64,000 nucleotides of DNA. It comes from Candidatus Parcubacteria bacterium. GTDB lineage: Bacteria; Patescibacteriota; Minisyncoccia; Phycocordibacterales; Phycocordibacteraceae. Both the position numbers and the translations under genes were made by a program. The notes beneath the pieces were generated by a model. The model had not been told where the DNA came from, did not search any database, and was given only the letters and a program-made list of their open reading frames with translations. Position 1 is the stretch's first letter. Each line of letters begins with the position of its first letter. The stretch is taken from contig JAXDML010000010.1 in NCBI GenBank assembly GCA_034666125.1, positions 52,260 through 116,259 of the forward strand, read 5' to 3'. This document shows positions 13,801-39,763 of this stretch, in pieces.

Positions 13801-16800
13801 TCTACGTCGCGACCAACGGCACTACTGGCGGATTCCAGGTACTTGATGCGGGAGGAGCGCAGCTGCCGCTTGCAAGTATAGGAAATATAAATACCAACCT
13901 GCTTACAGTGGACGAGAACGCGAACTTCGGCGGCGAAATCTATGCGCAAGGCGGCATCAACGCCGGTATCTCCGGCATCTTCTCGCGTGGCACAATCTCC
14001 GCGTACGTCGCATCGTCGACTCAAACCAATCCCACGGTCGCCAACTTCATGGGTGGTTCGGTCGGCATCGGTACGACAACGCCATATGCGGCGCTTTCGG
14101 TGGTCGGGATCAACACCGCCGTGCCGACGCTCTCGATCAAACCGGCGGCGTCGCAAACAGCAAATATTCTCGACCTTTACACGTTCGGCTCACTTACGTC
14201 AGTCATCGATGCGGCGGGTAACTGGGGCATCAGTACCACCTCTCCCTGGAAAACGCTCTCGGTCGGTGGTGATTTTTCGCTCACTGGCGCGTTCTTTGAT
14301 AGTGGAGCATCCTCGGGGACGAACGGCATGGTGCTCCAGACCACCGGGTCGGGCACGCAATGGGTCGCCACTTCGTCGCTCGGCATCAGCGCCGGCCTCA
14401 CGGGCTCCGGCTGCTGCGGTCAGGTCGCGTATTGGAACGGTGCGAGTTCCCTTACCGGTGACGCGGCCTTCACGTTCGACGGCACGAACCTCTCGCTCGG
14501 TACCGGCCAGTACCTGGTCACCGATTCGGAAGGCGCTCCCGGCTACTCCTGGACGGGGGACACGACGACCGGCATATATCACGCGGGTGCCAGCACGATC
14601 GGCTTCTCGACCGGCGGGATCGAACGGATGCGCATAGACGGGAACGGCTATCTCGGCATATCGACGACATCGCCGGGACAGATGCTATCGGTGGAAGGAG
14701 ACGCATACATAAGCGGCGCCACGGTGATCGGGGATACCGGGCTTCCGCTCGTCGGTCCAGCGCTTACCGTGAACGGCTTTACGGGCATCGCTTCCTCATC
14801 GCCCTGGGGCCTGCTCTCGGTGAATCCGAACGCAATCGGTACCGCTCCCTCCTTCGTCGTCGGTTCCTCGAGCGCAACGAACTTCATTGTCGCGAACGGC
14901 GGCAGCGTGGGGATCGGTATGACGGCACCCTCATCGCGGTTCCAGGTGGCCGATATCAATAGGTTGTCGGGCACGTCGGTAAGTTCGGCCGGTTTTGGAA
15001 ACACGAATCTCTCGGTCTACACGACTGATGCAGCAGCTACCAACGTGGGAGCCGTCATTGGGCTCGGAGGAGCGAACCTATACGGCGGTCTGAAGGGCGC
15101 AAGTCAGAGCGGCACTTCAGCCGGATACCTTGGCTTCTATACGAATTCCTTCAGTATCATCACTGGGAACACGTTCGCAGAGCGAGCCCGTATAACGTCT
15201 AGCGGCCAGCTTGGCATCGGAACGACCACGCCGTTCGGCCTGCTGGCGGTCGCCGGGCCTATCGCTGGCAATCATATCATCCCGAATGGTCCATATACCG
15301 ATAATCTTTCTGCGTACGACCTTGGCGCAACCGGAAGCCGCTGGAACGCGCTGTGGGCCGGTACGGTCAATATCGGCACGAGTACCTGGAGCATCAATAA
15401 TGGCAGCGATGGACGACTATCGTTCTTCGACGCCGCATCGGGCGGCGGGAACGAGCGCCTCTCCCTGCTTACGAACGGGAATGTCGGCATCGGTACGACT
15501 AGTCCTGCGGCCCGTCTCGCCATTACAAGCAATGCAGCCATTACAAGCGATAGCATCGATACGTACTTAGCAAACACCGTGAATGCTGGAACTGTGTCGG
15601 GTACGGATCGACTTATTACTGGCAACTATACTACGCTTTCCCCTACAGTTACGCTTGAAGGCGCTACCCTAAGCGCTATCGCAAATAAAACACTAGTTAA
15701 TGCTGGAAACGTTACTCTTGGCAGTACCGCGCTCTCTGGTGTTTCAGGAAGTCTCATTGGAGACTCTATAGAAGTTACCGGGAGCCCCATATTTAACGAC
15801 CCGGATGGTAACGACGAGCTGAATGCCACGTTTATCGGAACCCAATCTTATGTCAACCTTGTACCCTCGGTTACCAGTGTCTCAGGCGGTAACCTAGCTT
15901 CGTATGGAGGATTGTTCACTAACTCTTCTTCCAACAGTAGCGGCAACCTTGGTGCCGGCGCGTACGGAGTTTCAGCGTTAGTAGGTGGCAACCCTCTTGT
16001 TAATGGATATCGTTACGGTTTTTATTCCACAGTTTCAGGTACATCTAACGAAAACACGGGTTACTGGGGAGCCGTTAGTGGAGGCACGGGTTCAAACTAC
16101 GGCTCAACTCTTATTGTCAGCGGTGGAGCCGTCAGTAATTACGGAAACTACGTGGGCATAAGCGGAGGTAATAACAATTACGGGTCGTATATATCCCTAC
16201 AAGCTAGTTCTACCAACTATGCGATTTATGCGACAGGTGGCGCGCAAAGCTATTTTTCTGGGAACGTCGGTATTGGTACCACCACTCCGTGGGCAACACT
16301 TGCGGTAAATCCAGTCGCTGGGGGAGCATCGAACGCTTTCGCCATCGGCTCTTCAACAGCTACGAGGTTCTTGGTGACTAACGGTGGAAATGTCGGTATC
16401 GGCACTACCACCCCAGGCACCCTCCTCTCGCTTGGAGACACCGGTGCGAACACAATCAATATTTCGGCTACGGCGACCTCGACATTCGGCAGCGGTATCA
16501 ACATCCGGACGGGCTGCTTTGCGGTGAACGGAGTGTGCGTCGGCGGAGGCGGAGGCGGGACGATAAACTCTGGAACGACCGGCCAGTTCCCGTACTACGC
16601 CGCGAACGGCACGACGCTCACGGCGACCTCGACGCTGCTCGTATCTACGGCATCGAACGTCGGTATCGGTACCACTACTCCTTCCGCACGACTCGCCATC
16701 ACGGGTACCGGTACGGGTACCGGACGAGCCTTCGCCATCGCGAACTCGTCCGACGCTGAACGGCTTTCGGTTCTCGATAACGGCAGTACCGCCATCATAA

Positions 16801-18953
16801 GCAGCTCGGCTACGGCATTCACTGTCGGTCCAAGCGGCGCGACGAATCCCGTGCTTACCTTAAACGCTTCCACGGGAAGCGGCGTGACCGGTATATCGAT
16901 AACCAACGGGACTACGGGTGGCACTACCGCTATCGTAGCGACCGATTCAGGCTCCAACTCGTCCCTAAGCATTAACCCGAAGGGAACCGGCACCCTTAAT
17001 TTGGGCACGACAAATACGGGTAACGTTGCTATAGGAAACAACTCAGCAGGGTCCAATATAAATGGATCCTCCGTCGCACTACGTGTAGCCGGCTCTGATC
17101 GTATAAGTCATATAGGATCTGCGGTCGCCTTTACAGTCACAACAGCCGCTACGGCGTCATCCATCCGCTATTCCTTTGCCGGTGCTGCAGATACGAACCT
17201 CACTGCCTCAACCGAAGCTCCAAGCACCTACTTCAATCTCGGCCAGACCCGTCAGCACGCGACTGGCGCGTTGACGCTTCAGCGCGACTTCCGCATCACG
17301 CCTTCCACGCACTCCTTCGCCGGCGCCTCGGCGCTGACGACCGCCGCTACTTTCGCCCTCGATTCCGGCCCCATCGGCAGCACGAACGCGACCATCAGCA
17401 CGTCGACCGCGCTCCTCATCGGCGGTGTTGGCAGCACCGCGCTTGCCAATACGACCAACGGCTACGGCCTCATGGTCTTCGCGCCGACCGGCGCCACCAA
17501 TAACTACGGCGCGTCGTTCGTGACCGGCAACGTCGGCGTTGGTACGACCTCGCCGTGGAGCAAGTTCTCGGTTACGGGTACCGGCGCCTGGGACGGTCTC
17601 GCGGGAACCGGCGATACGCTTCCGCTCTGTATCAATAACACTACGAAGGAGATCGTCGCGAAGGCGACTGGCGCGTGTACGACCGGCTCGGACGCCCGGC
17701 TGAAGGAGAACATCGTACCGCTGCGGGATTCGTACGGCCTTTCCTCGATCGATGCGCTCCGTCCGGTGGAGTTCGACTACAAGGACCCTTCGTTCGGTAC
17801 AGGTCACCAGGAAGGCCTCATCGCCCAGGAGGTCTTGAGCATCTTCCCGAATCTCGTGAGTACGTCGACGCCGACCAGATTCACGCCCGATGTGACCTAT
17901 ACCCTCAACTACCAGGGGCTCGTGATCCCGATGGTAAAAGCGATCCAGGAGCTGTCCGGACGTACCAGCGCGCTCTCGCTCGCCACGTCGACGCTGTCAG
18001 TGCGCCTTGGCGTGGTCGAAGCCGGCCTGGCTGACGCAAACGGAACCACGGTCGGACCTATAACAGCGACTACGCTGAGCGCAGATTCGGCCAACGTGCG
18101 CGGTACCGTACATGCCGCGCGCGTAACGGCTGACGCATTCATGAGCGCGCCGCGCTACTTCGCTCCGGATACGGAAGAATCGTTCGCGGTCGGCTCGACG
18201 ACCCAGATCGTGCACGCGCCGGCCGAAGCGCTCACGTCCTCCGGCGTCGATATCTATAAGCTCGCGACGTACAGCATCGCCCGTATCCAGTCGCTCGAAG
18301 GCCGTATGAGCGAGTTCGCCTCGCGCCTCGATCTTATCGATGCGCGTCTTGCCGCACTTGAGAGCCAGGCAGGCACTGGTCTCGGCGGGCTCTTCGCCGG
18401 CGCATTCGAAAACGTGGACGCGATCGTCGAGAACGGCATCGCGTACTTCAGGAACATCAAGATCGGCTCGCTCCTGGTCGCGAAGAACGACAACGGCACC
18501 TCCGCAGCCGGAGTAGGCACCATCCTGGAAGGGAATACCGTGGTCGAGATCGCGAACCCCCTCGCGCGTCCTTCAAGCAAGATATTCATCACCCTTACGT
18601 CGCCGCTCGAAGGCTCGTGGTACCTCTCCGACAAGGGAGACGGCAGCTTCCGCGTCAGACTTTCGCAAGCGCAGTCGTCGGACGTGACGTTCGACTATTT
18701 CATCGTCCAGACGGAAGGGAACGACCAGACGCCGCAACCGCCGCAGGAAGGGGACGAGCCTCCGCCACCTGACCCAGAGCCGAACCCAGAGCCGAACCCA
18801 GAGCCAGAGCCGACTCCGACACCAACCCCCGAGCCGGAACCAGAACCAACGCCCGATCCTGAGCCGGCTCCGAACCCAGAGCCGGAGCCGGAGCCGGAGC
18901 CCGAACCGACCCCGGAACCTGAACCTGCTCCGGAACCACCTCCCGCGCCCTAA
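1839..18953 (+). CDS. Giant (5704 aa) membrane-anchored surface fibre/adhesin: N-terminal HTH_17-like domain, single TM helix, Ala-rich stalk, poly-Gly, about 8 kb of tail-fibre-like tandem repeats, LVIVD beta-propeller, Peptidase_S74 intramolecular-chaperone autoprocessing domain, (EP)n tail
   Basis: Single uninterrupted ORF in the supplied six-frame track with strong GC3 codon bias. N-term 'LISTKEASIISGYNPDYLARLCRAGVIAGKRIGRTWCLERTSLDTFI' (HTH). TM 'GFAFALALWVVALSGYASV'. Repeated 'NVGIGTTTPxxxLSV', 'GGTG', 'LAEGSNLYYTDGRVN' motifs. Seven 'YAY...hhDVSNP' LVIVD repeats. 'TGSDARLKENIVPL' S74 motif. C-terminal PEPEPTP run. Confidence 0.85.
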   Translation: MSSLLTNDLISTKEASIISGYNPDYLARLCRAGVIAGKRIGRTWCLERTSLDTFIRTQQAHKQEIAHTLSETRSREYREAHQEPVTPGVPSAEKAAPAAYVPLVPARRSVPIHLRPGFAFALALWVVALSGYASVSDAFIGTARDAGRLAYDLAVVRAITYDGPAVFLASRDEPAPNVPDLHIPDQDVLVAEAAQVAASDVTLPDMATRHNESRSAATLAGSVGASRIAAVSAFFRTPGASFAMLRDTGVGAYVRMGASIERFAHDTLVQYATTVESAGADSLELASAARDMAAFAPARAEAIRIAYERGIYAWVERTPDVARGITERTLALGDALGGGATLAPNVVGNASRDVAIAVAAGIATPTRGPVDSTTPTGIAAASDAHLAAGVAAAPAALVRSLEQSVFSAVRAAHIALTGGVRLLAGLFDDLSVALTSAPERIVTILTPAASGPGAYTATTTNTTYVDRFIGDTTVVRNYYPQTFLGGVSREEIDARFTAFDSLMRRNIESALRRRGGGGGGGGGGGSISLNDPTFTGTLTTDDAVVNNNLSVGNDTTIGGNLDVGGDANVTGTLTVGSFSVSNLSANNTVVAPRFIGTSTSEASVFPNIIATTSVTDNATSTNLYATNFGIGNSYFTSLLGNGLVNTGGMLSVSTSSLASGFFQNGGNAFGVPAVLGTTDNQPLSLITNNTTAATILGNGNVGIGTTSPFTKLSVGGDAYVGGNVTATGTATVQGLSIGSLSGFLKATAGTVATSLVSLASDITGTLPVGNGGTGSTSLTGLLVGNGASPVQTASVTAPLVLTGTTLSINQANASQDGYLSSTDWNTFNNKIASTSLSGGTGISYNPATGVITNTGVTSTTGDWTGTFDGQEGSYYLANSFSTTSAAYFLSQNGGSAFSTTSANYWLSTKSTSDLAEGSNLYYTDGRVNTFINGSSTIPKTYTNNVFTGGNTFTNASSTDLYVANTFRGAGLTACNTSASKLLYDAVTGQFNCGADAGAGGGITAIGAQYSPYQTGSTQTFATTSDTNIGLVITSAGDTHTFTPTFTGTLAVPRGGTGSSTLSGILLGNGAGPVQTLGIGPGLALAGGTLSVSTTSFSGPGSNFNADLLDGQDGTYYLDRANHTGTQTASTISDFNAAVNTYIHGSTTIPKTYTANTFTATQTFGNLVATNATTTSLGLNSETFTDLTGSGLLNVGGTLTLDRTGDWTGTLDGQEGAYYLARANHTGTQLASTISDFSTTARGLFAATYPIQYDSGTGLFNLAFGTTTSNTWAGTQTFNNLVATNATTTSFGINGETFTDLTGSGLSNVGGVLTVSTSSLANLNADLLDGLDSTYFLANSFSTTSANHWLTTKSTTNLAEGSNLYYTDARVNSYIHGSTTIPKTYTNNTFTGTQTFNNLVATNATTTSLAVGTDYITDLTGSGLTITGNALTLDRTGDWTGTFDGQEGTYYLNRANHSGTQLASTISDFSEATDDRVAVLIQNGTGISWSYNDGANTFTPTVTLAPFTTTNLAEGSNLYYTDGRVASYINASTTILNDSTEAGLETFLTDVANVFTNNDGALSDDDLSNNSIEDLSDVAAMTENYGDLLGWNGTTWTDFATSSLGLITSAVQNIGPAGQTADGPTVTFATTTSTTNGITSALTVTGSGDTLTFTPSQSGTLTVPGGGTGASSFTAGNLIYGAGTGALQSVATSSVSSGTGISFTGTPGALVGGTPLTISNTGVLSFNGRTGAVTPQSGDYTTTIVAEGTNLYYTDARVNSYIHGSTTIPKTYTANTFTALNTFSAGASTTQLTATGNAYLATAGGNVSVGGTTASEKLTVTGNILSSNLAGVGNRCVYADLNGVLRVAADNCGLAGAGGDDLGNHIATQNIQLNNNWLSNDGGSEGVSIDNSGNVTMSGDASAASFTRGGDTITDFTGTGLTVISGALTVSTSSLANLNADLLDSLDSTYFLANSFSTTSANYWLTTKDTDDLAEGSTNLYYTDGRVNTFIAGSTTIPKTYTNNTFGGTQTFNNLLATNATTTSFGINSETFTDLTGSGLLNVGGTLTLDRTGNWTGTFDGQEGTYYLARANHTGTQLASTISDFNDAVANYVNASSTILNDSTEAGLEAFLTDVTNVFTNNDGALNDDDLTNNSIEDLSDVATMTENYGDLLYWNGTAWADIATSSLGLPTASITNIGPTGQMADGPNVTLATSTSAFNGLTSSLTITGSGDTLTFVPALSGTLNNAGLTNSTVSYGGVTLSLGGSDATPAFDLTDATNLPIVGGTTGTLTVPRGGTGQVSFTASNLIYGAGTGALQSVATTTVSATGPLSFTANPVVIGASPITLSLGTVDISSNTNLAATYPIVLTGDTLSLAFGTTTSNTWAGTQTFNNLVATNATTTSLGLNGETFTDLTGSGLLNVGGTLTLDRTGDWTGTFDGQEGSYYLNRANHTGTQAASTISDFSEATDDRVAVLIQNGTGISWSYNDGANTFTPTVTLAPFTTTNLAEGTNLYYTDARVNSFVHSSTTIPKTYTANTFTGAQTFNGGLTLGTLNGPLQANNGIVSATTSIGVLYGGTGLTIAPTYGQLLVGNSSGGYTLTSTSSLGLITQAVQNIGPAGQMADGPNVTFATSTASFNGLTQGITITGSGDTITFTPSLSGTLGVGGGGTGAASFAYGLVLSPGGTGALTNIATSSLGLLTTNVAEGSNLYFTDERVDDRVAVLIQNGTGISWSYNDGANAFTPTVTLAPFTTTNLAEGSNLYYTDARVASYINASTTILNDSTEAGLEAFLTDVTNVFTNNDGTLADDDLTNNSIEDLSDVAAMTENYGDLLYWNGSAWADIATSSLGLLSTAVTNIGPAGQMADGPTVTFATTTSTTNGITSALTITGSGDTLTFTPSQSGTLTVPGGGTGATSFTAGNLVYGTGTGALQSVATTTLSGNSQIALSQPVVVIGASPSVLSITADSIGDAQLAFNTGQNLTTASSPTFASLTLTNPLAVTSGGTGWAAIQAGAIPYGNGTGALATTTAGTNGNILALLNGIPTWTSTSTFLLETEVDTEAELETLLTDVTNVFTNNDGALADDDLTNNSIEDLSDVAAMTENYGDLLYWNGTAWADIATSSLGLVTSALTSIGPAGQQQTGPAITLASSTAGTDFTITAAGNTVTFNLPTASATNRGLLSSADWSTFNGKENVLSFTYPLVRTVNNISLAFGTTTSNTWAGTQTFNNLVATNATTTSFAIGSDYITDLTGSGLTVTGNALTLDRTGDWTGTFDGQEGTYYLARANHTGTQLASTISDFSEATDDRVAVLIQNGTGISWSYNDGANTFTPTVTLAPFTTTNLAEGTNLYYTDARVNSYIAASTTIPKTYTSNTFTGLQTLNGGLTLGTLNGPLQANVGVVSATTSIGVLYGGTGLTIAPTYGQLLVGNASGGYTLTATSSLGLASAATAFIQNGNSFGATAVLGTNDANDLQFETSGTTKLTILQNGNVGIGTTTPSNLLHVFSSSASPRIRAETSLTSGSSGFTAAGESTTGFASFSWNNSGAANSTFLTLPNAGLVRAGSGASGGLVLVNENTSAPIIFATGGSSFSNERLRIDSAGNVGIGTTTPFTMLSVNGNIAGNHLVPNGAYTDNLSPYDLGAIGSRWNALWAGTLNIGTSTWSINNGSDGRLSVFDAASGGGTERFSILTNGNVGIGSTTPFAKLSLAGGNFWQTAGDPVIASSTDTTAAVNGVYVAGRYAYLTPNSASPGLVIMDVSNPRSPAQVGSANTTGNAKRVVVSGRYAYVLSARLHIFDVTNPASPSAVGNYNPGVNIPNDIWVSGKYAYLARSNFSTGAGSLAIVDLSNPALPIAVSSINSPDSTRPFNSIYVSGRYAYVGTTEVSGTTGRLYIYDISNPTAPSLVGTFNATNRVTGVYVSGRYAYLSGLGTTSGLEIVDVSNPASPALAGSFNTANDAMRVQVSGNYAYIAEAGTTDGIVVVDVSQPGSPVQVGSYTTANSANNLYVSGKYIYVATNGTTGGFQVLDAGGAQLPLASIGNINTNLLTVDENANFGGEIYAQGGINAGISGIFSRGTISAYVASSTQTNPTVANFMGGSVGIGTTTPYAALSVVGINTAVPTLSIKPAASQTANILDLYTFGSLTSVIDAAGNWGISTTSPWKTLSVGGDFSLTGAFFDSGASSGTNGMVLQTTGSGTQWVATSSLGISAGLTGSGCCGQVAYWNGASSLTGDAAFTFDGTNLSLGTGQYLVTDSEGAPGYSWTGDTTTGIYHAGASTIGFSTGGIERMRIDGNGYLGISTTSPGQMLSVEGDAYISGATVIGDTGLPLVGPALTVNGFTGIASSSPWGLLSVNPNAIGTAPSFVVGSSSATNFIVANGGSVGIGMTAPSSRFQVADINRLSGTSVSSAGFGNTNLSVYTTDAAATNVGAVIGLGGANLYGGLKGASQSGTSAGYLGFYTNSFSIITGNTFAERARITSSGQLGIGTTTPFGLLAVAGPIAGNHIIPNGPYTDNLSAYDLGATGSRWNALWAGTVNIGTSTWSINNGSDGRLSFFDAASGGGNERLSLLTNGNVGIGTTSPAARLAITSNAAITSDSIDTYLANTVNAGTVSGTDRLITGNYTTLSPTVTLEGATLSAIANKTLVNAGNVTLGSTALSGVSGSLIGDSIEVTGSPIFNDPDGNDELNATFIGTQSYVNLVPSVTSVSGGNLASYGGLFTNSSSNSSGNLGAGAYGVSALVGGNPLVNGYRYGFYSTVSGTSNENTGYWGAVSGGTGSNYGSTLIVSGGAVSNYGNYVGISGGNNNYGSYISLQASSTNYAIYATGGAQSYFSGNVGIGTTTPWATLAVNPVAGGASNAFAIGSSTATRFLVTNGGNVGIGTTTPGTLLSLGDTGANTINISATATSTFGSGINIRTGCFAVNGVCVGGGGGGTINSGTTGQFPYYAANGTTLTATSTLLVSTASNVGIGTTTPSARLAITGTGTGTGRAFAIANSSDAERLSVLDNGSTAIISSSATAFTVGPSGATNPVLTLNASTGSGVTGISITNGTTGGTTAIVATDSGSNSSLSINPKGTGTLNLGTTNTGNVAIGNNSAGSNINGSSVALRVAGSDRISHIGSAVAFTVTTAATASSIRYSFAGAADTNLTASTEAPSTYFNLGQTRQHATGALTLQRDFRITPSTHSFAGASALTTAATFALDSGPIGSTNATISTSTALLIGGVGSTALANTTNGYGLMVFAPTGATNNYGASFVTGNVGVGTTSPWSKFSVTGTGAWDGLAGTGDTLPLCINNTTKEIVAKATGACTTGSDARLKENIVPLRDSYGLSSIDALRPVEFDYKDPSFGTGHQEGLIAQEVLSIFPNLVSTSTPTRFTPDVTYTLNYQGLVIPMVKAIQELSGRTSALSLATSTLSVRLGVVEAGLADANGTTVGPITATTLSADSANVRGTVHAARVTADAFMSAPRYFAPDTEESFAVGSTTQIVHAPAEALTSSGVDIYKLATYSIARIQSLEGRMSEFASRLDLIDARLAALESQAGTGLGGLFAGAFENVDAIVENGIAYFRNIKIGSLLVAKNDNGTSAAGVGTILEGNTVVEIANPLARPSSKIFITLTSPLEGSWYLSDKGDGSFRVRLSQAQSSDVTFDYFIVQTEGNDQTPQPPQEGDEPPPPDPEPNPEPNPEPEPTPTPTPEPEPEPTPDPEPAPNPEPEPEPEPEPTPEPEPAPEPPPAP
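3376..3411 (+). repeat. (GGN)11-12 codon run encoding poly-Gly inside the giant gene; slippage-prone
   Basis: ggcggaggagggggcggcggaggcggaggcggc read directly. Confidence 0.7.
4400..12100 (+). repeat. Zone of nested tandem coding repeats inside the giant gene (at least three families, 170-230 bp each, about 4-5 diverged copies per family)
   Basis: Family A (LNDSTEAGLEAFLTDVTNVFTNNDGAL..DDDL.NNSIEDLSDVAAMTENYGDLLYWNG..W.D.ATSSLGL) at about 6439-6655, 8141-8345, 10115-10325, 10957-11150. Family B (ETFTDLTGSGLLNVGGTLTLDRTGDWTGTFDGQEGSYYLARANHTGTQLASTISDF) at about 5380-5550, 6085-6250, 7920-8095, 8995-9170, 11510-11670. Family C (SEATDDRVAVLIQNGTGISWSYNDGANTFTPTVTLAPFTTTNLAEG.NLYYTD.RV) at about 6240-6420, 9165-9340, 9910-10085, 11655-11840. 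Confidence 0.8.
12610..12850 (+). repeat. Copy 1 of a duplicated 240-bp coding segment (IAGNHLVPNGAYTDNLSPYDLGAIGSRWNALWAGTLNIGTSTWSINNGSDGRLS...)
   Basis: Near-identical peptide recurs at 15245-15490. Confidence 0.7.
12955..13860 (+). other. LVIVD-repeat beta-propeller domain of the giant protein (7 blades)
   Basis: Repeats 'GRYAYLTP..GLVIMDVSNP', 'GRYAYVLS..LHIFDVTNP', 'GKYAYLAR..LAIVDLSNP', 'GRYAYVGT..LYIYDISNP', 'GRYAYLSG..LEIVDVSNP', 'GNYAYIAE..IVVVDVSQP', 'GKYIYVAT..FQVLDAGG'. Confidence 0.75.
15245..15490 (+). repeat. Copy 2 of the duplicated 240-bp coding segment (IAGNHIIPNGPYTDNLSAYDLGATGSRWNALWAGTVNIGTSTWSINNGSDGRLS...)
   Basis: See the copy at 12610-12850. Confidence 0.7.
17640..18010 (+). 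other. Peptidase_S74 / intramolecular chaperone autoprocessing domain (tail-spike and endosialidase C-terminal type)
   Basis: 'CTTGSDARLKENIVPLRDSYGLSSIDALRPVEFDYKD...GHQEGLIAQEVLSIFPNLV' contains the S-D-x-R-x-K-x-N-I hallmark. The predicted cleavage Ser is near codon 5284. Confidence 0.7.
18769..18950 (+). repeat. Low-complexity gagccN/gaaccN repeat encoding the (E/D/N/T-P)n tail PEPNPEPNPEPEPTPTPTPEPEPEP...
   Basis: Read directly. Confidence 0.8.
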
Positions 18954-22160: not shown

Positions 22161-23018
22161 ATGGCCCTTACGGACTCCGAAGTACAGGCGCTCGAAGAAA
22201 GGGCGACAGCGATACGCGAGACGATACTCTCCATGCTCGTATCGGCGGGAAGCGGGCACACCGCAGGTCCGCTCGGCATGACCGACATCTTCACCGCCTT
22301 CTATTTCCATATCCTCGCCCACGATCCGAAGAGCCCTGACGATCCCTCACGCGACTATCTGATACTTTCGAACGGACACATCGCCCCGGTACGATACGCG
22401 ACGATGGCGCATGCGGGATACTTCCCGGTAGAGGAGTGCCAGACGCTCCGCAAGTTCGGCTCGCGCCTGCAGGGGCATCCGGAGCGCACCAAGCTCCCCG
22501 GGCTCGAGACCACGTCCGGGCCGCTCGGTTCAGGACTTTCGCAAGCCTCCGGTATCGCGTACGCGCTCCGCATGGACGACAAGAAAAACCGGGTGTATTG
22601 CTTGATGAGCGACGGCGAGCAGCAGGAGGGGAATACGTGGGAGGCCGCAATGTTCGCGGGAAAGTATAAGCTTTCGAATATGACGGCGGTCATGGACCGC
22701 AACAATATCCAGATCGACGGCATGACGGAGGACATCATGCCGCTCGAGTCCCTGCGCGCGAAATACGAGGCCTTCAACTGGCACGTGCTCGAGGTGAACG
22801 GACACGACATCCCGGCCTTCATCGCAGCGGTCGAAGAGTCGAAGGCCATCTATGAGAAGCCGACCCTCATCATCGCGCATACCATCCCCGGCAAGGGCGT
22901 GAAGGAGATCGAGTTCGACTATAGATGGCATGGCAAGCCGCCGTCTAAGGAAGAAGTCGTGCGGTTCTTGAAGGAAATTCGATCGCTGAAAGGCCGGGTG
23001 CCGGGAGAATATGCATAG
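22161..23018 (+). CDS. tkt: Transketolase, N-terminal (TPP-binding) subunit
   Basis: 'GSGHTAGPLGMTDIFTAFYF...LSNGHIAPVRYATMAHAGY...GHPE' is the TK N-terminal region; stop after about 286 aa. An upstream TTG at 22158 is also possible. Confidence 0.9.
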   Translation: MALTDSEVQALEERATAIRETILSMLVSAGSGHTAGPLGMTDIFTAFYFHILAHDPKSPDDPSRDYLILSNGHIAPVRYATMAHAGYFPVEECQTLRKFGSRLQGHPERTKLPGLETTSGPLGSGLSQASGIAYALRMDDKKNRVYCLMSDGEQQEGNTWEAAMFAGKYKLSNMTAVMDRNNIQIDGMTEDIMPLESLRAKYEAFNWHVLEVNGHDIPAFIAAVEESKAIYEKPTLIIAHTIPGKGVKEIEFDYRWHGKPPSKEEVVRFLKEIRSLKGRVPGEYA

Positions 23019-23412
23019 TATGGAAGCACTTGAGGACGAGATTCGCGAATACCTTGTCGAGCGCAAGTGGGACCAGCTCCGGCCCGGCGACCTCGCCAAA
23101 TCGGTCGCCATAGAGGCCGGGGAACTCCTGGAGCTGTTCCAGTGGGACAATCCGTCGCTTGCCGAAGTGAAGGCGAATCCGGAGCGTCTCGCGGAGATAC
23201 GGAAAGAACTTGCCGATGTCCTGCTCTACTGCCTCGATATAGCGGTGCTGCTTGAGTTTGATACGGTACAGGTCGTAAAGGACAAGCTTGAGAAAGTGAG
23301 GCACAAGTATCCTGCAGCGCTCTTCAAGGATCGCGCGGAGGGGACCGACGCCGGTACCGAGGATATTTATTGGCAGATAAAAAGAGAGCACCGCCAAAAA
23401 GGAACATCATGA
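23011..23412 (+). CDS. MazG-like nucleotide pyrophosphohydrolase domain protein
   Basis: 'EYLVERKWDQ...SVAIEAGELLELFQW...LADVLLYCLDIAVLLEFD' is a small all-alpha MazG/NTP-PPase-like fold. Overlaps tkt-N by 8 nt and tkt-C by 3 nt. Confidence 0.6.
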   Translation: MHSMEALEDEIREYLVERKWDQLRPGDLAKSVAIEAGELLELFQWDNPSLAEVKANPERLAEIRKELADVLLYCLDIAVLLEFDTVQVVKDKLEKVRHKYPAALFKDRAEGTDAGTEDIYWQIKREHRQKGTS

Positions 23413-24398: not shown

Positions 24399-24595
24399 GC
24401 GCCATATCAGTATCTATATGGGTGCGCTCCTTATAACGGTTTTGGGTGCCGCAGCGACAGTAGCGATTACACGCACGGCAGCAGAGGTCGATTCTTTTAT
24501 GTATACGGATACATATTTTGCGCCTACAGGCGAAGGGTCCGAGAGTGCTGAATAGTCGAGTTCGAAACCTACTCTCTCAACAAATAAACAGAAGA

Positions 24596-24635
24596 CCGCC
24601 CACCGAGAAAGGGGACCCGGTGGGTCGGCTTTCTG
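24596..24635. terminator. Stem-loop (cccaccg/cggtggg, 12-nt loop) with T-rich flank on the minus strand; likely terminator of minus gene 24668..24901, possibly also of the tkt operon
   Basis: Read directly; the minus-strand reading is followed by tcttctgtttatttg. Confidence 0.4.
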
Positions 24636-24667
24636 CGATGAGCGGGTGCTCAGCGACTTTGGCTTCC

Positions 24668-24901
24668 TTAGCCGAGATTCGTTCTTCCTGCCTCGCGACC
24701 GAGCATAAGGAGGAACGCGACGACTGCGATAATGATCAGGTTGGCGATCCAGTCCCATTGCAGCCACAGGTGAAGAAGGGCGGCGTTGGCCAGCAGCAGG
24801 GCGGCGAAAATCACGAACGTGTGCCACCTCACTTCACCAAGGAACCGCATGGAAAGGGCGGACAGGGCCAGAGCCCAGAGGTAGAGGTAATAGGGGTACA
24901 T
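24668..24901 (-). CDS. Small two-TM membrane protein, unknown function
   Basis: 77 aa, two hydrophobic helices (YLYLWALALSALS...; ANLIIIAVVAFLLML). Followed by a minus-strand hairpin plus T tract. No homology recognised. Confidence 0.35.
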   Translation of the reverse strand: MYPYYLYLWALALSALSMRFLGEVRWHTFVIFAALLLANAALLHLWLQWDWIANLIIIAVVAFLLMLGREAGRTNLG

Positions 24902-25040
24902 CCCAGCCTCCTCACATTCGAGTTTCAGAACGTCATCACCATATCAATACTCTCAACTCTTGTCTACGACAAGAAGGCGGGATGTCTTTGGGAAGTTCCA
25001 ACATCGTCCCAGACTGCCAGCAATAAGTTAGAATTTCTGA

Positions 25041-25508
25041 ATGCGTTCAGTGGAATCTCTAATAGATCCAGAGAAATATCAGGTATTTCTTATGAGTTGC
25101 CCGGCGAGTTTGCCGCTTAGCTTTGCGGTACACCCGTGGTTTGTAGTTAATAGGAAGGGAGAAGTCTCACGTTGGGAAGTCACCTGGCGACCGACAATGC
25201 GTTCAACAGAAAAGTCATGGACTCATCTTAGGCGCAATATGCTGCCTCCGTTCTATGGGCTTCGCATCCTTCGTTCTTGGGAGAGATGCCGATGGAAGGG
25301 TAAGCTGCTTGATTTTATCGAAGGAGACGAATCGTCTTTGGCAGCACGTATGGTTAAAAGTATTGAAGAGTCTTCAACTACCTACCCGAACAAAGATACC
25401 TATTCTTTTACCGGTCCCAACAGCAACACGTATATTCAGTGGATCCTTGATCAGTTCCCGGAGGCGCATATGAACCTTCCCTGGAATTCGTTCGGCAAGT
25501 CCTGGTGA
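25041..25508 (+). CDS. Conserved protein of unknown function, 155 aa (paralog of 27265..27738)
   Basis: Shares 'YQVFLM...HPWFVVN.KG.VSRW...LPPF.G..IL......GPNSNTY.QW.LDQFPE..L.LPWN.FGK' with the second copy. Confidence 0.6.
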   Translation: MRSVESLIDPEKYQVFLMSCPASLPLSFAVHPWFVVNRKGEVSRWEVTWRPTMRSTEKSWTHLRRNMLPPFYGLRILRSWERCRWKGKLLDFIEGDESSLAARMVKSIEESSTTYPNKDTYSFTGPNSNTYIQWILDQFPEAHMNLPWNSFGKSW

Positions 25509-25538
25509 ACAACCCGCAAGACTCCCGGCTACTTCGCA

Positions 25539-26375
25539 CTAAGCGGTTGTCGTAGATTGAGGTTCTACTTCAACCGACAAAGCCAGATGGTCCGAGCCGG
25601 AGGCGACGGTCTCTGCATGAACCCTGGTCCAGTGCGGCGATATGAAAATATGGTCGAGGGCTCTCTGAAGAAATCTAGGAAGGAAGACTGGGCAGGTCAG
25701 TTTCTCATCCGGGTCTGCAGATACGAGCCCTAACAACCTGAAGCTGGGGTTTGCATACAGTGCGGTTTCATTCTCATTCCAATCGCCCGCAAGGACGGCC
25801 TCATTTCCGAGTGCACGCTCCTTCGTAGTCATCTCTGCGATATACGCGAGCTGTTTGACGAACATGGCGGGATTCCGGTAAGTGAGGTGCACGCCGAATA
25901 TAGTTAGCGGTCTTGCCTTTAGGCGAATGCCCGCCATGCCGGCTCCGCCTCCCATGCTTGGGCGCTGGGGCATGGAACACGGAATGATCTCGCCCGGCTC
26001 TTTCGTTGCGACCACGATGGAAATGGTCGTGCCGGGGTAATGCTCGCTTAAACCCCATGCGATGGTCTGGAATCCCATAGCACGAAGCTCTCTTTCGATG
26101 CGCTCGTGGTACAGCTCGTATAGCGCCTCGTTAAGTATCAAGATATCCGGTGCTATACGCTGTATAAGCTCTAAATACGGGTCAAGATACTGATGCTTCT
26201 TCACATAGGCGATCCGCTTCCCCTTCGATATGCGGGAACTCCTGCCGCGCAGGAAAGGGAAGAACTCATACGTCAGTACGCCCCATCCATGCATGTGCAG
26301 ATGGCGCTTAAGGTTCGTGGCAAACCGATCCATGCCGGTGAAGCCGAAGGCAGTATTGATCGTCAGGATCTTCAT
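25539..26375 (-). CDS. Endonuclease/exonuclease/phosphatase (EEP) family protein
   Basis: 'DILILNE' (N-terminal catalytic Glu motif), 'GDWNE', 'SDHLAL' (catalytic His motif). 278 aa, no signal peptide. Confidence 0.75.
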   Translation of the reverse strand: MKILTINTAFGFTGMDRFATNLKRHLHMHGWGVLTYEFFPFLRGRSSRISKGKRIAYVKKHQYLDPYLELIQRIAPDILILNEALYELYHERIERELRAMGFQTIAWGLSEHYPGTTISIVVATKEPGEIIPCSMPQRPSMGGGAGMAGIRLKARPLTIFGVHLTYRNPAMFVKQLAYIAEMTTKERALGNEAVLAGDWNENETALYANPSFRLLGLVSADPDEKLTCPVFLPRFLQRALDHIFISPHWTRVHAETVASGSDHLALSVEVEPQSTTTA

Positions 26376-26387
26376 AGAAGCTAACCG

Positions 26388-27221
26388 CTAAGGACTTATT
26401 AGTTCCGATACGACTGCTAAGTGATCGGATCCGAACGATCTGTAGTGCGTATCGGATGCGCGCCATCCGGGAGGCAGGAATACGTGGTCGTAGTCGAACC
26501 GGAGGAACGTGGGCCCGAGGAGCGTAGTCGGTTGCTTGGTAACGGTCGATAATCCCAGCGCCCTGAATGAAGGAATGCGATCGAGGCCTTTCGCACGTTG
26601 GTTGAAGTCGCCCGCAAGGATGCATATTCGACCGTTGCTCCCTTCGGTCTTGTAGATGCCGATCAGGTCTTGAACCTGGCGTTCCGATAGGCTGCGTAGG
26701 CCCACGGTCAGATGCGCACCGACGATAGTCACCGCTTGTTTTTCAAGCCTCAATCCCGAGATGCCGGCACCGCCTGAGATCTGCTGGAGCTGCGTCATCG
26801 TCGGCGCGAATCCATCATCAAGGCACGGTAGGCGTGAAGCGACCACGGCCGTAGCCGTAAGGTGGGGAGGCTGCAAACTCTTGCCCCAACCGATATGAGC
26901 GAATCCTAACTCCTCAAGTCCTTTTCTCAAAGGTTCCTCGTGGATCTGATGCAGGATCTCGGTCAGTACGACGATGTCTGGCTTTTCTTCCGCAATGAGC
27001 GCAAGCACGGGACGTACTGTGCTATGCGCGGAGAAGAAGGCGATACCTTTCCGACCTGGCCCCGTATTGTAATTGAAAATACTCCCGAACCGGCCGCTGG
27101 TGAGTAGGTAGGGAAATATCTTCCAACCATAAAGCTTGATGAGCGAAGATAAACATCGGACCACTGAATCCGAACCCGGGATCCCGAGCGCGATATTCGC
27201 GGTCATGATCTTCAATGACAT
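26388..27221 (-). CDS. EEP family protein, paralog of 25539..26375
   Basis: 'DIVVLTE', 'GDFNQ', 'SDHLAV'. Start chosen at M9 (MSLKIMTANIALG) by alignment to the paralog; the ORF is open to 27245. Confidence 0.75.
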   Translation of the reverse strand: MSLKIMTANIALGIPGSDSVVRCLSSLIKLYGWKIFPYLLTSGRFGSIFNYNTGPGRKGIAFFSAHSTVRPVLALIAEEKPDIVVLTEILHQIHEEPLRKGLEELGFAHIGWGKSLQPPHLTATAVVASRLPCLDDGFAPTMTQLQQISGGAGISGLRLEKQAVTIVGAHLTVGLRSLSERQVQDLIGIYKTEGSNGRICILAGDFNQRAKGLDRIPSFRALGLSTVTKQPTTLLGPTFLRFDYDHVFLPPGWRASDTHYRSFGSDHLAVVSELISP

Positions 27222-27264
27222 GGAAAGATAGTAACACCGAGCCAACAGTTGCTATGCTGGAAAC

Positions 27265-27738
27265 ATGGACGGAAAAGCGGCAGAAAAGCTCCTTAGACCG
27301 GATCGATATCAGGTCTTTTTGATGATAGGCCGATCACAGGTCCTCTTCGCACCGCACCCCTGGTTTGTAGTGAATAAGAAGGGAATCGTATCCCGCTGGG
27401 CGATCGGTCTCAGGACTATGAGGAGAAATCCCCGGTGGGGTTACATAAACAAAGACGCCCTCCCTCCTTTCGCGGGCGTCCCGATACTTTGGCCGATCTG
27501 GAAAAGTACGCTGGTGGGATACGTTGAAGGAGGGGAGGGCTCCTTAGCGGCGCGAATGATAGAGCGCATTGAGGGCTCCTATGAATCTTATCCGTACCGC
27601 GATAGGTACACTCTCACCGGCCCCAACAGCAACACGTACGTACAATGGCTTCTCGATCAATTTCCGGAGTCGGGACTCAAGCTTCCATGGAACGCGTTCG
27701 GGAAAGGGTATAGAAGGTTCGGAGCCCCCGTGACGTAG
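27265..27738 (+). CDS. Conserved protein of unknown function, 157 aa (paralog of 25041..25508)
   Basis: See 25041..25508; diverges from the second EEP gene. Confidence 0.6.
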   Translation: MDGKAAEKLLRPDRYQVFLMIGRSQVLFAPHPWFVVNKKGIVSRWAIGLRTMRRNPRWGYINKDALPPFAGVPILWPIWKSTLVGYVEGGEGSLAARMIERIEGSYESYPYRDRYTLTGPNSNTYVQWLLDQFPESGLKLPWNAFGKGYRRFGAPVT

Positions 27739-27759
27739 AAGCCGCGCTATACTTTATGT

Positions 27760-28161
27760 ATGGAAGAGAAAAAGCCGGCGGAACGCTTCTCGGTCGTTAA
27801 GCGCGCGAAGAGCTTTACCCACGCCGGGCGAGGTCTTTGGATCTTCGTGCGAACGACGCACAACGCTTGGGTGCACCTCTTCGTCCTGGTCTTGGCGATA
27901 CTGCTCGGGATCTATTTCCACATTTCGTACATCGACTGGATGCTCCTTATTTTTGCAGGTGGCATGGTACTTGCCGCCGAAGCGTTCAATACGGCGATCG
28001 AAATAGATATCGATCTGACCTCGCCCGAATATCATCCCTATGCACGGGACACCAAGGATGTTGCCGCTGGCGCCGTCCTTATCTCGGCAGTGACCGCCGC
28101 GCTGATAGGCGTCGGCATATTCGGCCACTACTTCGTCGACCTCCTGGGCGGACTGCACTAA
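27760..28161 (+). CDS. dgkA: Diacylglycerol kinase / undecaprenol kinase family (prokaryotic DgkA)
   Basis: Three TM segments and 'EAFNTAIEIDIDL', 'AKDTKDVAAGAVL'-like motifs typical of DgkA. Confidence 0.7.
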   Translation: MEEKKPAERFSVVKRAKSFTHAGRGLWIFVRTTHNAWVHLFVLVLAILLGIYFHISYIDWMLLIFAGGMVLAAEAFNTAIEIDIDLTSPEYHPYARDTKDVAAGAVLISAVTAALIGVGIFGHYFVDLLGGLH

Positions 28162-28194
28162 GGGAGAATGTCGTTTGGGCGAGTTAGCGAGTAT

Positions 28195-39690: not shown

Positions 39691-39763
39691 GCCGGTGTAG
39701 CTCAGTTGGTAGAGCAGCTGTTTTGTAAACAGCAGGTCGTGGGTTCGAACCCCTCCGCCGGCT
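39691..39763 (+). tRNA. tRNA-Thr (anticodon UGU)
   Basis: Cloverleaf folded by hand: acceptor gccggtg/cgccggc (one G-U pair), D arm gctc-agttggta-gagc, anticodon arm gctgt-ttTGTaa-acagc, T arm gtggg-ttcgaac-ccctc (one U-U mismatch), discriminator T. CCA is not encoded. Confidence 0.8.

Follow-up and report, generated by a model that had tools for sequence, protein, structure and literature searches.

The genome of a Candidatus Parcubacteria bacterium carries, between tktC and pfkB, two genes for proteins of the endonuclease/exonuclease/phosphatase (EEP) fold and two genes for small proteins of the DUF3750 family. This arrangement raises the questions of how the genes came to stand there and whether their products act together. 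A first-pass annotation had seen in them a duplicated two-gene module of toxin-immunity or defence type, or an EEP enzyme with a small substrate-targeting subunit. We examined the locus within its window, the whole stretch of 64,000 nucleotides that was analysed.

Gene layout and origin of the block

The features of the locus are as follows.

24399..28194, no strand: inserted block of about 3.8 kb between tktC and pfkB, containing all of the genes below
24668..24901, minus strand: hydrophobic small protein of 77 aa, an ORF that JGI also calls as a gene (KD19 maximum 2.28)
25041..25508, plus strand: DUF_A, DUF3750 protein of 155 aa (PF12570, E 7e-19; GC3 0.49)
25539..26375, minus strand: EEP_A, 278 aa, Mg-dependent phosphoesterase of the EEP fold, second in the EEP_B-EEP_A tandem and convergent with DUF_A
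26388..27245, minus strand: EEP_B, 285 aa from a TTG start, a divergent paralogue from the same narrow EEP family as EEP_A
27265..27738, plus strand: DUF_B, second DUF3750 protein, 157 aa (PF12570, E 3e-17)
27760..28161, plus strand: dgkA, prokaryotic diacylglycerol kinase family (PF01219, E 1e-31)

The four central genes span 25041-27738 in the order DUF3750(+), EEP(-), EEP(-), DUF3750(+), as first described, and the motifs quoted for both families are all present in the sequences. The gaps between them, given earlier as 14-20 nt, are 30, 12, and 19 nt. The last widens to 43 nt if EEP_B starts at the ATG at 27221 (277 aa), which is the likely start because the alignment of the family and JGI's own gene call both favour it. 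The description of each EEP as paired with a small partner was overstated: DUF_A is convergent with EEP_A, and DUF_B and EEP_B are divergent, with dgkA 21 nt downstream of DUF_B on the same strand as DUF_B. Neither DUF3750-EEP pair in the window is co-directional; therefore, the layout gives no indication that the two are co-transcribed. DUF_B and dgkA, with the same strand and the 21-nt gap, are probably co-transcribed. Promoter and terminator scans performed no better than on shuffled sequence, and no non-coding RNA was found by Rfam or ARAGORN in the 640-nt gap at 24399-25040. Searches of Pfam, NCBIfam, PADLOC, and PHROG gave no match for the 77-aa protein, and none of the fetched loci contains a homologue. 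Signal peptides, reported as lacking in the EEPs, are not evident in any of the four central proteins, and neither are transmembrane segments (maximum Kyte-Doolittle 19-residue mean of 1.36 or less).

The impression of compositionally distinct DNA was confirmed by a GC scan of the window. The GC content of 24400-27760 is 0.531, against 0.606 in the rest of the window, and is the lowest among 607 windows of the same length. GC3 is 0.49-0.64 in the islet and 0.74-0.85 in rpe, tkt, pfkB, and fba; that of dgkA is intermediate (0.70). In three relatives (L108, L110, and L111; TktC 81-88% identical), tktC is followed by 0.2-1.6 kb of unrelated small genes and then by pfkB(-)-fba-L25-SLT, with no DUF3750, EEP, or dgkA gene between tktC and pfkB. 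Since tktC stands almost directly before pfkB in these close relatives, the whole block at 24399-28194, including dgkA, is a lineage-specific insert. Consequently, dgkA, which is absent from the site in the relatives, is part of the insert and not the flanking gene that it was taken for. Two marks of a horizontally acquired islet are thus present: the composition is atypical, and relatives lack the block at the orthologous site. It contains no integrase, tRNA target, boundary repeats, or phage genes (the only tRNA of the window is at 39691), and the islet has no matches in PHROGs or IMG/VR. A phage or mobile-element origin was rejected on these grounds.

The history of the paralogues was also considered. 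DUF_A and DUF_B are 51% identical, and EEP_A and EEP_B are 32% identical. Every one of the four has a closer homologue in another organism, at 59-67% identity or, for EEP_B, at 46% (P0173); the best homologues of DUF_A, at 59-62%, are in other Patescibacteria. A recent in situ duplication of a two-gene module was rejected because each paralogue resembles its window twin less than it resembles genes in other genomes. Judged from these identities, both paralogue pairs are old.

Predicted enzymology of the two families

A Pfam search placed both small proteins in DUF3750 (69.2 and 64.0 bits; cut-off 25), and 32 of 32 aligned homologues also match this family. The predicted structure has the papain-like core of the permuted papain-like NlpC/P60-LRAT-PPPDE hydrolases. 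His31 lies within the predicted strand 30-38, and Ser122 lies just ahead of the predicted helix 124-131; DUF_A has both the His of HPWF and the Ser of GPNSNTY. Of 259 sequences, 258 have the His; at position 122, 238 have Ser (about 90% of members), 18 have Cys, and 1 has Asn. Arg44 is invariant. These observations are strong in silico evidence that DUF3750 is an active Ser/Cys-His enzyme, predicted to be a hydrolase with a His31-Ser/Cys122 pair on a permuted papain-like fold. With such a conserved, catalytic-type His and a Ser/Cys-only position, the suggestion that the small protein serves passively as a targeting subunit is not supported.

The closest structural match of DUF3750 is TseH, a T6SS effector of the NlpC/P60 type from Vibrio cholerae, and other NlpC/P60-type proteins are also among its neighbours. 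However, the identity to TseH is 14%, DUF3750 uses Ser as the nucleophile, and it lacks a T6SS context and a TsiH-like immunity gene. DUF3750 differs from PPPDE/DeSI (Peptidase_C97) and CLN5 in its Ser nucleophile, its invariant Arg44, its bacterial distribution, and its very basic character. In comparison with the LRAT/PLAAT (H-box/NC) phospholipase-acyltransferases and the picornavirus 2A H-box/NC proteins, it lacks a C-terminal membrane anchor, has Ser in place of Cys, shows no evident second His of the H-H-C triad, and is not related to them at the sequence level. Sequence searches against solved structures gave no significant PDB match, and a comparison of PF05903 with DUF3750 gave nothing significant (at best, 1 of 32 members at E 0.1). 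The active site of DUF3750 has been described as positively charged (PMC10318531). The family comprises 767 clusters at 50% identity, most of them without an EEP neighbour.

EEP_A and EEP_B match Exo_endo_phos (PF03372) at 30.5 and 32.1 bits (cut-off 24.5), and structural comparison confirmed the EEP fold. Across 35 homologues, both window copies among them, the residues N7, E83, H163, D198, N200, D241/H242, D262, and H263 either do not vary or are conserved in at least 90% of the sequences. The motifs taken as catalytic in the first-pass annotation therefore hold on alignment, with the metal-binding and catalytic set intact. The family of the window EEPs has 58 detectable clusters. A helical insertion of about 60 residues (10-75), specific to this family, lies between strand 1 and the strand of the catalytic Glu. 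Neither protein has an NCBIfam equivalog, and neither was assigned to xth or another named subfamily. The top Foldseek matches are Tdp2, and the best PDB sequence match is ExoIII (E 3e-5); however, the scores of Tdp2, ExoIII, Nocturnin, and sphingomyelinase lie no more than 2 Z units apart, and the neighbours do not discriminate substrates. The window EEPs belong to none of the characterised subfamilies (neutral/bacterial sphingomyelinase C, Tdp2, ExoIII/APE, and Nocturnin/CCR4). The EEP and DUF3750 families are both basic (median pI 8.8 and 9.25), a property compatible with nucleic acid and with anionic lipid alike.

Genomic linkage of DUF3750 and EEP

Neighbours were counted within 6 kb of 80 DUF3750 loci from GTDB species representatives, sampled through DUF3750 alone. 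A non-Xth EEP was found at 5 of the 11 loci in the clade of the window and at 0 of the 69 outside it (hypergeometric p ~2e-5, computed by hand). A single NJ clade contains all of the EEP-linked DUF3750 copies and both window copies. Linkage to a non-Xth EEP is thus non-random within this clade and was found at none of the sampled loci outside it. Counted from the EEP side, DUF3750 occurs at 3 of 24 EEP loci. The linked loci involve three EEP subtypes in several arrangements and in divergent genomes (37-57% identity). EEP1 and DUF3750 share one strand in L092. In L090 and JGI contig 2526, a DUF3750-EEP2 pair with a 4-nt overlap is convergent with EEP1. The other arrangements are MFS-DUF3750-EEP2-isochorismatase (L009), DUF3750-amine oxidase-245 aa-EEP2 convergent with EEP1 (L113), and a 4.4 kb stretch that holds three EEPs, DUF3750, and MFS (L098). 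The EEP-DUF3750 linkage is real, recurrent, and limited to one clade.

Other genes appear in these neighbourhoods. P0302 is a fusion of DUF3750 with a GDPD-like domain, and the same GDPD-like gene adjoins EEP1 in L092 and L103. A profile of three GDPD-like sequences matches solved GDPDs at E 7e-6, and the Pfam GDPD model scores just under its gathering score. Two loci, L020 and L095, carry patatin genes. In Moranbacteria, a genuine xth (287-292 bits) adjoins DUF3750 in six loci. A Pfam census of 112 neighbours of the clade's DUF3750 genes showed weak recurrences (MFS 6, GNAT 3) and no dominant theme. Among the fetched loci, dgkA is linked to DUF3750 or EEP only in this genome.

The genes of the block may instead be unrelated cargo (DUF3750, EEPs, and dgkA) in a variable, recombination-prone slot, with the linkage elsewhere reflecting clade synteny. 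The small genes in the tktC-pfkB slot differ from one relative to the next. An EEP of the window's own family lies within 6 kb of 1 of the 80 DUF3750 loci, and no neighbour family occurs at more than 6 of the 80. The lack of co-directional pairs in the window and the old paralogues, each nearer to genes of other genomes, also fit this explanation. However, it does not sit well with linkage in several arrangements of divergent genomes, which includes 4-nt overlaps and same-strand adjacency, with the involvement of three EEP subtypes, or with a DUF3750 fusion that brings in a gene otherwise adjoining EEP1. We consider an absence of functional coupling rather unlikely.

Possible function of the cluster

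The DUF3750 proteins look like small Ser/Cys hydrolases; therefore, an accessory enzyme cluster, acquired horizontally, is the most likely identity of the block, rather than a toxin-immunity or defence module. The full reading, in which the hydrolases also act together, has about an even chance of being correct. The cluster would comprise two soluble, basic, metal-dependent phosphoesterases of the EEP fold, two soluble, basic DUF3750 enzymes, the small membrane protein, and DgkA. The EEP and DUF3750 enzymes may share one class of substrate in which an acyl or amide bond occurs alongside a phosphodiester. Cleavage of the phosphodiester would fall to the EEP; hydrolysis or transfer of the acyl or amide group would fall to DUF3750.

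As the substrate, we tentatively prefer a scavenged phospholipid or glycerophosphodiester. A PLC- or sphingomyelinase-like cut by the EEP would yield diacylglycerol, which DgkA would re-phosphorylate, and DUF3750 would act on the acyl chains like PLAAT/LRAT or CLN5; the purpose would be membrane salvage. Patescibacteria are reported to recycle lipids from other bacteria and to have gained lipases by HGT (PMC12455944), and CLN5, a structural neighbour of DUF3750, is an S-depalmitoylase (PMC9012467). Hints of such a substrate are these two reports together with the GDPD-like fusion and the GDPD-like neighbours of EEP1, patatin, and dgkA in the insert. Counted against the full reading of co-acting hydrolases are the undiscriminating EEP neighbours, the basic pI, the restriction of dgkA to this genome, the sub-threshold GDPD score, and the Moranbacteria xth, as well as further DUF3750 fusions (cytidylyltransferase-like, riboflavin kinase, and HAD). 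The convergent or divergent window pairs and the many DUF3750 genes without an EEP neighbour were also counted against it. More doubtful still is a wider version, in which DUF3750 would be a PLAAT/LRAT/CLN5-like lipid acyl-hydrolase or transacylase and, with EEP, GDPD, patatin, and DgkA, would form a horizontally exchanged toolkit with which CPR bacteria of the Paceibacteria type, unable to synthesise lipids themselves, would dismantle and rebuild phospholipids derived from the host.

Processing of nucleic-acid ends or repair of adducts appears unlikely. Here, a Tdp2/ExoIII-like EEP would remove phosphodiester-linked adducts from DNA or RNA, and DUF3750 would trim a peptide or acyl group. The Tdp2 and ExoIII matches, the basic proteins, the positively charged DUF3750 active site (PMC10318531), and a bona fide DNA-repair gene, xth, beside DUF3750 in Moranbacteria are consistent with this role. 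However, Tdp2 is not distinguished by its structural score from sphingomyelinase, Nocturnin, or uncharacterised EEPs, no further repair genes recur nearby, and the neighbouring GDPD-like, patatin, MFS, and dgkA genes are out of place in such a role.

Many CPR bacteria live as episymbionts, and the proteins could be attack enzymes that leave the cell by an unrecognised export route and degrade the host envelope, one type as an NlpC/P60-like amidase and the other as phosphodiesterases acting on teichoic acid or phospholipid. The TseH and NlpC/P60-type neighbours of DUF3750 and the GDPD and patatin partners would suit this role, which is nevertheless improbable in view of four proteins without signal peptides or membrane anchors and a block without secretion genes.

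Least credible is toxin-immunity or anti-phage defence, with the EEP as a toxic nuclease or phosphatase that DUF3750 neutralises or targets: the low-GC acquired DNA, the duplicated arrangement of a small gene beside a potentially harmful hydrolase with an intact active site, and the resemblance to TseH recall such modules, but the window pairs are not co-directional, DUF3750 mostly occurs without EEP and itself looks catalytic, no known defence model matches in PADLOC (E<=0.01), PHROG and IMG/VR gave no matches, and toxin-delivery domains, signal peptides, and mobility genes are absent. The first interpretation thus stands for the distinct DNA, the intact EEP catalytic set, and a clade-limited linkage, and falls for toxin-immunity, defence, and passive targeting.

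The analysis provides strong in silico evidence that DUF3750, a family without assigned function, is an active Ser/Cys-His enzyme. It also defines a clade in which this family is tied genomically to several types of phosphodiesterase, and it offers a concrete substrate hypothesis for DUF3750 and for a narrow, unstudied EEP family. Were the lipid reading wrong, the locus would still be a clean insertion of accessory genes into a conserved pentose-phosphate/glycolysis gene string of a streamlined genome. If it is true, the cluster would bear on how CPR/Patescibacteria acquire and remodel their membrane lipids.

Composition and synteny of the inserted block

The window derives from a Candidatus Parcubacteria MAG, and identical proteins are found in NCBI (QOE22_579/581) and on a 232-kb JGI contig. 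ORF calls confirmed the four genes described in the first-pass annotation, which encode two small DUF3750 proteins (DUF_A and DUF_B) and two endonuclease/exonuclease/phosphatase-fold proteins (EEP_A and EEP_B). The layout, with the adjacent dgkA, is as follows.

25041–25508, plus strand: DUF_A, Pfam DUF3750 (PF12570)
25539–26375, minus strand: EEP_A, Pfam Exo_endo_phos (PF03372)
26388–27245, minus strand: EEP_B, Pfam Exo_endo_phos (PF03372)
27265–27738, plus strand: DUF_B, Pfam DUF3750 (PF12570)
27760–28161, plus strand: dgkA, 21 nt past DUF_B and on the same strand

EEP_B and EEP_A form a minus-strand tandem flanked by DUF_A, which is convergent with EEP_A, and by DUF_B, which is divergent from EEP_B. 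The intergenic gaps are 30, 12, and 19 nt. EEP_B more likely starts at the ATG at 27221, which fits the family N-terminus (MKILTANIA) and widens the last gap to 43 nt. No signal peptide or transmembrane segment was seen in the four proteins, both families are basic, and an NCBIfam search assigned no name to any of the four.

The GC content of 24400–27760 is 0.531 versus 0.606 in the remaining window, the lowest among 607 windows of equal length, and GC3 is 0.49–0.64 in the islet genes versus 0.74–0.85 in the flanking core genes. Three relatives (L108, L110, and L111; TktC 81–88% identical) retain the order gap-rpiB-rpe-tktN-tktC-pfkB(−)-fba-L25-SLT, with 0.2–1.6 kb of unrelated small genes between tktC and pfkB. 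DUF3750, EEP, and dgkA are absent from this slot in all three; therefore, the insert spans 24399–28194 and includes a 77-aa hydrophobic ORF and dgkA. The low-GC, acquired islet proposed in the first-pass annotation is thus real, but it is larger than claimed. No tRNA, integrase, terminal repeat, phage-family match, or IMG/VR relative marks the insert.

The 77-aa ORF, on the minus strand, is the only ORF in the ~640-nt spacer that follows tktC (24399–25040); the spacer has no Rfam or tRNA match, and the ORF has no homologue among the fetched loci. The cargo of the slot differs among the relatives, comprising an NTPase_I-T gene (L108, 8990–9526), two unknown genes (L110, 6952–8402), and a 60-aa ORF (L111, 8984–9166); this variety marks the slot as a local gene-turnover hotspot. 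A second small insertion is suggested by a MazG-like pyrophosphohydrolase gene (PF12643, E 1e-9; 23011–23412, plus strand), which sits between tktN and tktC, the two genes of the split transketolase, and overlaps each of them. In the three relatives, tktN abuts or overlaps tktC without it, and its GC3 (0.65) is lower than that of its neighbours. Upstream, a single ORF of 5704 aa (1839–18953, plus strand) carries LVIVD repeats and a Peptidase_S74 domain in the JGI annotation; at the matching position, L108 and L111 have large ORFs (2308 and 1782 aa) that run past the locus end.

In 79 other loci (L004–L083), the GC content of DUF3750 genes is on average 3.7 points lower than that of their flanks, while EEP genes have no such bias. 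Some of the dip is therefore a family trait, but the low GC of the EEP genes and the broken synteny are particular to the window genome. The DUF3750 deficit occurs in GC-rich and GC-poor genomes alike and is most extreme in L012 and L034 (−18 and −22 points); it could reflect frequent transfer or a family composition bias.

Predicted activities and age of the proteins

Among 266 DUF3750 members, His31 is kept in 258 of the 259 ungapped sequences, and Arg44, Asn121, and Asn123 are practically invariant. At position 122, Ser occurs in 238 sequences, Cys in 18, and Asn in one; the closest homologues of DUF_B have Cys there. This restriction gives the position the appearance of a catalytic nucleophile, in agreement with a published assignment of DUF3750 to the papain-like families as a Ser variant whose pocket is positively charged (PMC10318531). 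His31 lies within a β-strand and Ser122 directly precedes a helix; this order of His and nucleophile is as expected for the permuted branch of the papain-like fold. DUF3750 is thus predicted to be an enzyme rather than a passive partner, and the suggestion that it is a substrate-targeting subunit is unlikely because it has its own conserved active-site residues.

EEP_A was modeled with very high confidence (pLDDT 93.8). The catalytic motifs noted at first pass are present, the complete EEP set is conserved in 35 homologues, and both enzymes are predicted to be active. The window's family (EEP1) is narrow, with 58 clusters found, and has a helical insertion of ~60 residues past strand 1.

DUF_A shares 51% identity with DUF_B, and EEP_A shares 32% with EEP_B. 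Their closest relatives elsewhere reach 59–63% for both DUF3750 proteins, 64–67% for EEP_A, and 46% for EEP_B. Judged from these identities, the paralogues are old, and recent duplication of a two-gene unit is ruled out because every paralogue is closer to proteins of other organisms than to its window twin.

Linkage between DUF3750 and EEP genes

DUF3750 is a family of 767 clusters at 50% identity. A same-family EEP lies within 6 kb in only one of 80 loci from species-representative genomes (L020), and no family of neighbouring genes is shared by more than six of the 80; from the DUF3750 side, pairing is mostly not beyond chance. From the EEP side, a link is visible, with DUF3750 within 2 kb in 3 of 24 metagenome EEP loci and more cases on contigs reached via protein matches. 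A broader iterative HMM with follow-up BLAST gave three EEP subtypes near DUF3750: EEP1, EEP2 (L090, L009, L113, L095, L010, L020, and JGI contig 2526), and EEP3 (L098, L005, and L006).

The linked arrangements vary. In L092, EEP1 is followed by DUF3750 on the same strand; in L090 and contig 2526, a DUF3750-EEP2 pair with a 4-nt overlap is convergent with EEP1; and L009 has MFS-DUF3750-EEP2-isochorismatase. The densest form observed is a 4.4-kb soil contig (L098, 1–4426) with a partial EEP1, a second, EEP_B-like EEP1, a convergent DUF3750, an MFS transporter, and EEP3 (3263–4060). The L092 DUF3750 gene is broken into two overlapping ORFs (5794–6292; 87 and 85 aa); it is a frameshifted pseudogene unless the assembly is in error.

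In a neighbour-joining tree, every EEP-linked DUF3750 copy falls with DUF_A and DUF_B in a single clade. Among loci sampled via DUF3750, a non-Xth EEP occurs within 6 kb in 5 of 11 clade members versus 0 of 69 outside it (hand-computed hypergeometric p ~2e-5, inflated by relatedness among loci). The proposed pairing is therefore genuine within one clade, but it is not a consistent co-occurrence.

Other neighbours recur. A GDPD-like gene adjoins EEP1 in L092 and L103, and a GDPD-like domain is apparently fused to a close DUF_A homologue (P0302; L114, 203–1357). A profile of these three GDPD-like sequences matched solved glycerophosphodiester phosphodiesterases (E 7e-6) with conserved His/Glu/Asp/His positions. 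Other apparent DUF3750 fusions involve a cytidylyltransferase-like domain (P0312, whose GRFQPPHVGH motif is reminiscent of NMN adenylyltransferases), riboflavin kinase (P0314), and a HAD phosphatase (P0316). L020, L095, L092, and L113 have recurrent patatin-like phospholipases and FAD oxidoreductases, and L004, L009, and L098 have an MFS transporter ahead of or beside DUF3750; among the fetched loci, dgkA linkage is confined to the window genome. A 186-aa hydrophobic protein without a Pfam match, encoded upstream of the DUF3750-EEP2 operon (L090, 7748–8308), has a 40%-identical homologue directly upstream of EEP1 (L084, 4429–4971) and is another recurrent neighbourhood member.

Possible role of the block

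The first-pass annotation favoured a toxin-immunity or defence module. That interpretation is supported in part. The islet is acquired DNA, the EEPs are predicted to be active, and a clade-limited linkage exists, but the module type does not stand: the genes are not co-directional, co-occurrence is inconsistent, the partner looks catalytic, and no defence model matched. The block genes may have no functional coupling whatever. Nucleic-acid end processing is a possible alternative, favoured by the resemblance to Tdp2/ExoIII, the basic pI, and the synteny with xth. In six Moranbacteria loci (L047, L052, L059, L061, L064, and L076), genuine xth precedes DUF3750 by 70 nt to 2.6 kb; it immediately adjoins DUF3750 on the same strand in L052 and L064, and its identity was confirmed in the three tested (TIGR00633, ~290 bits; L047, L052, and L064). 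Such proximity may hint at a nucleic-acid role or may simply follow from synteny within the clade.

Most economically, the genes can be read as a set of accessory hydrolases that would act together. EEP1–3 and the GDPD-like enzyme would form the phosphoesterase part, and DUF3750 and patatin the acyl/amide hydrolase part; the set would be exchanged among Paceibacteria-type Patescibacteria and here was probably placed into a variable slot. We tentatively favour phospholipid/glycerophosphodiester salvage as its role because of the apparent fusion with a GDPD-like domain, the neighbouring patatin genes, the presence of dgkA in the block, structural relatives that act on lipids (PLAAT4 and, according to PMC9012467, CLN5), and the reports of foreign-lipid recycling and horizontally gained lipases in Patescibacteria (PMC12455944). 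Although the Pfam families themselves are known, the gene association and the DUF3750 catalytic signature were not previously described. The phospholipid/glycerophosphodiester substrate hypothesis, although unproven, is testable.
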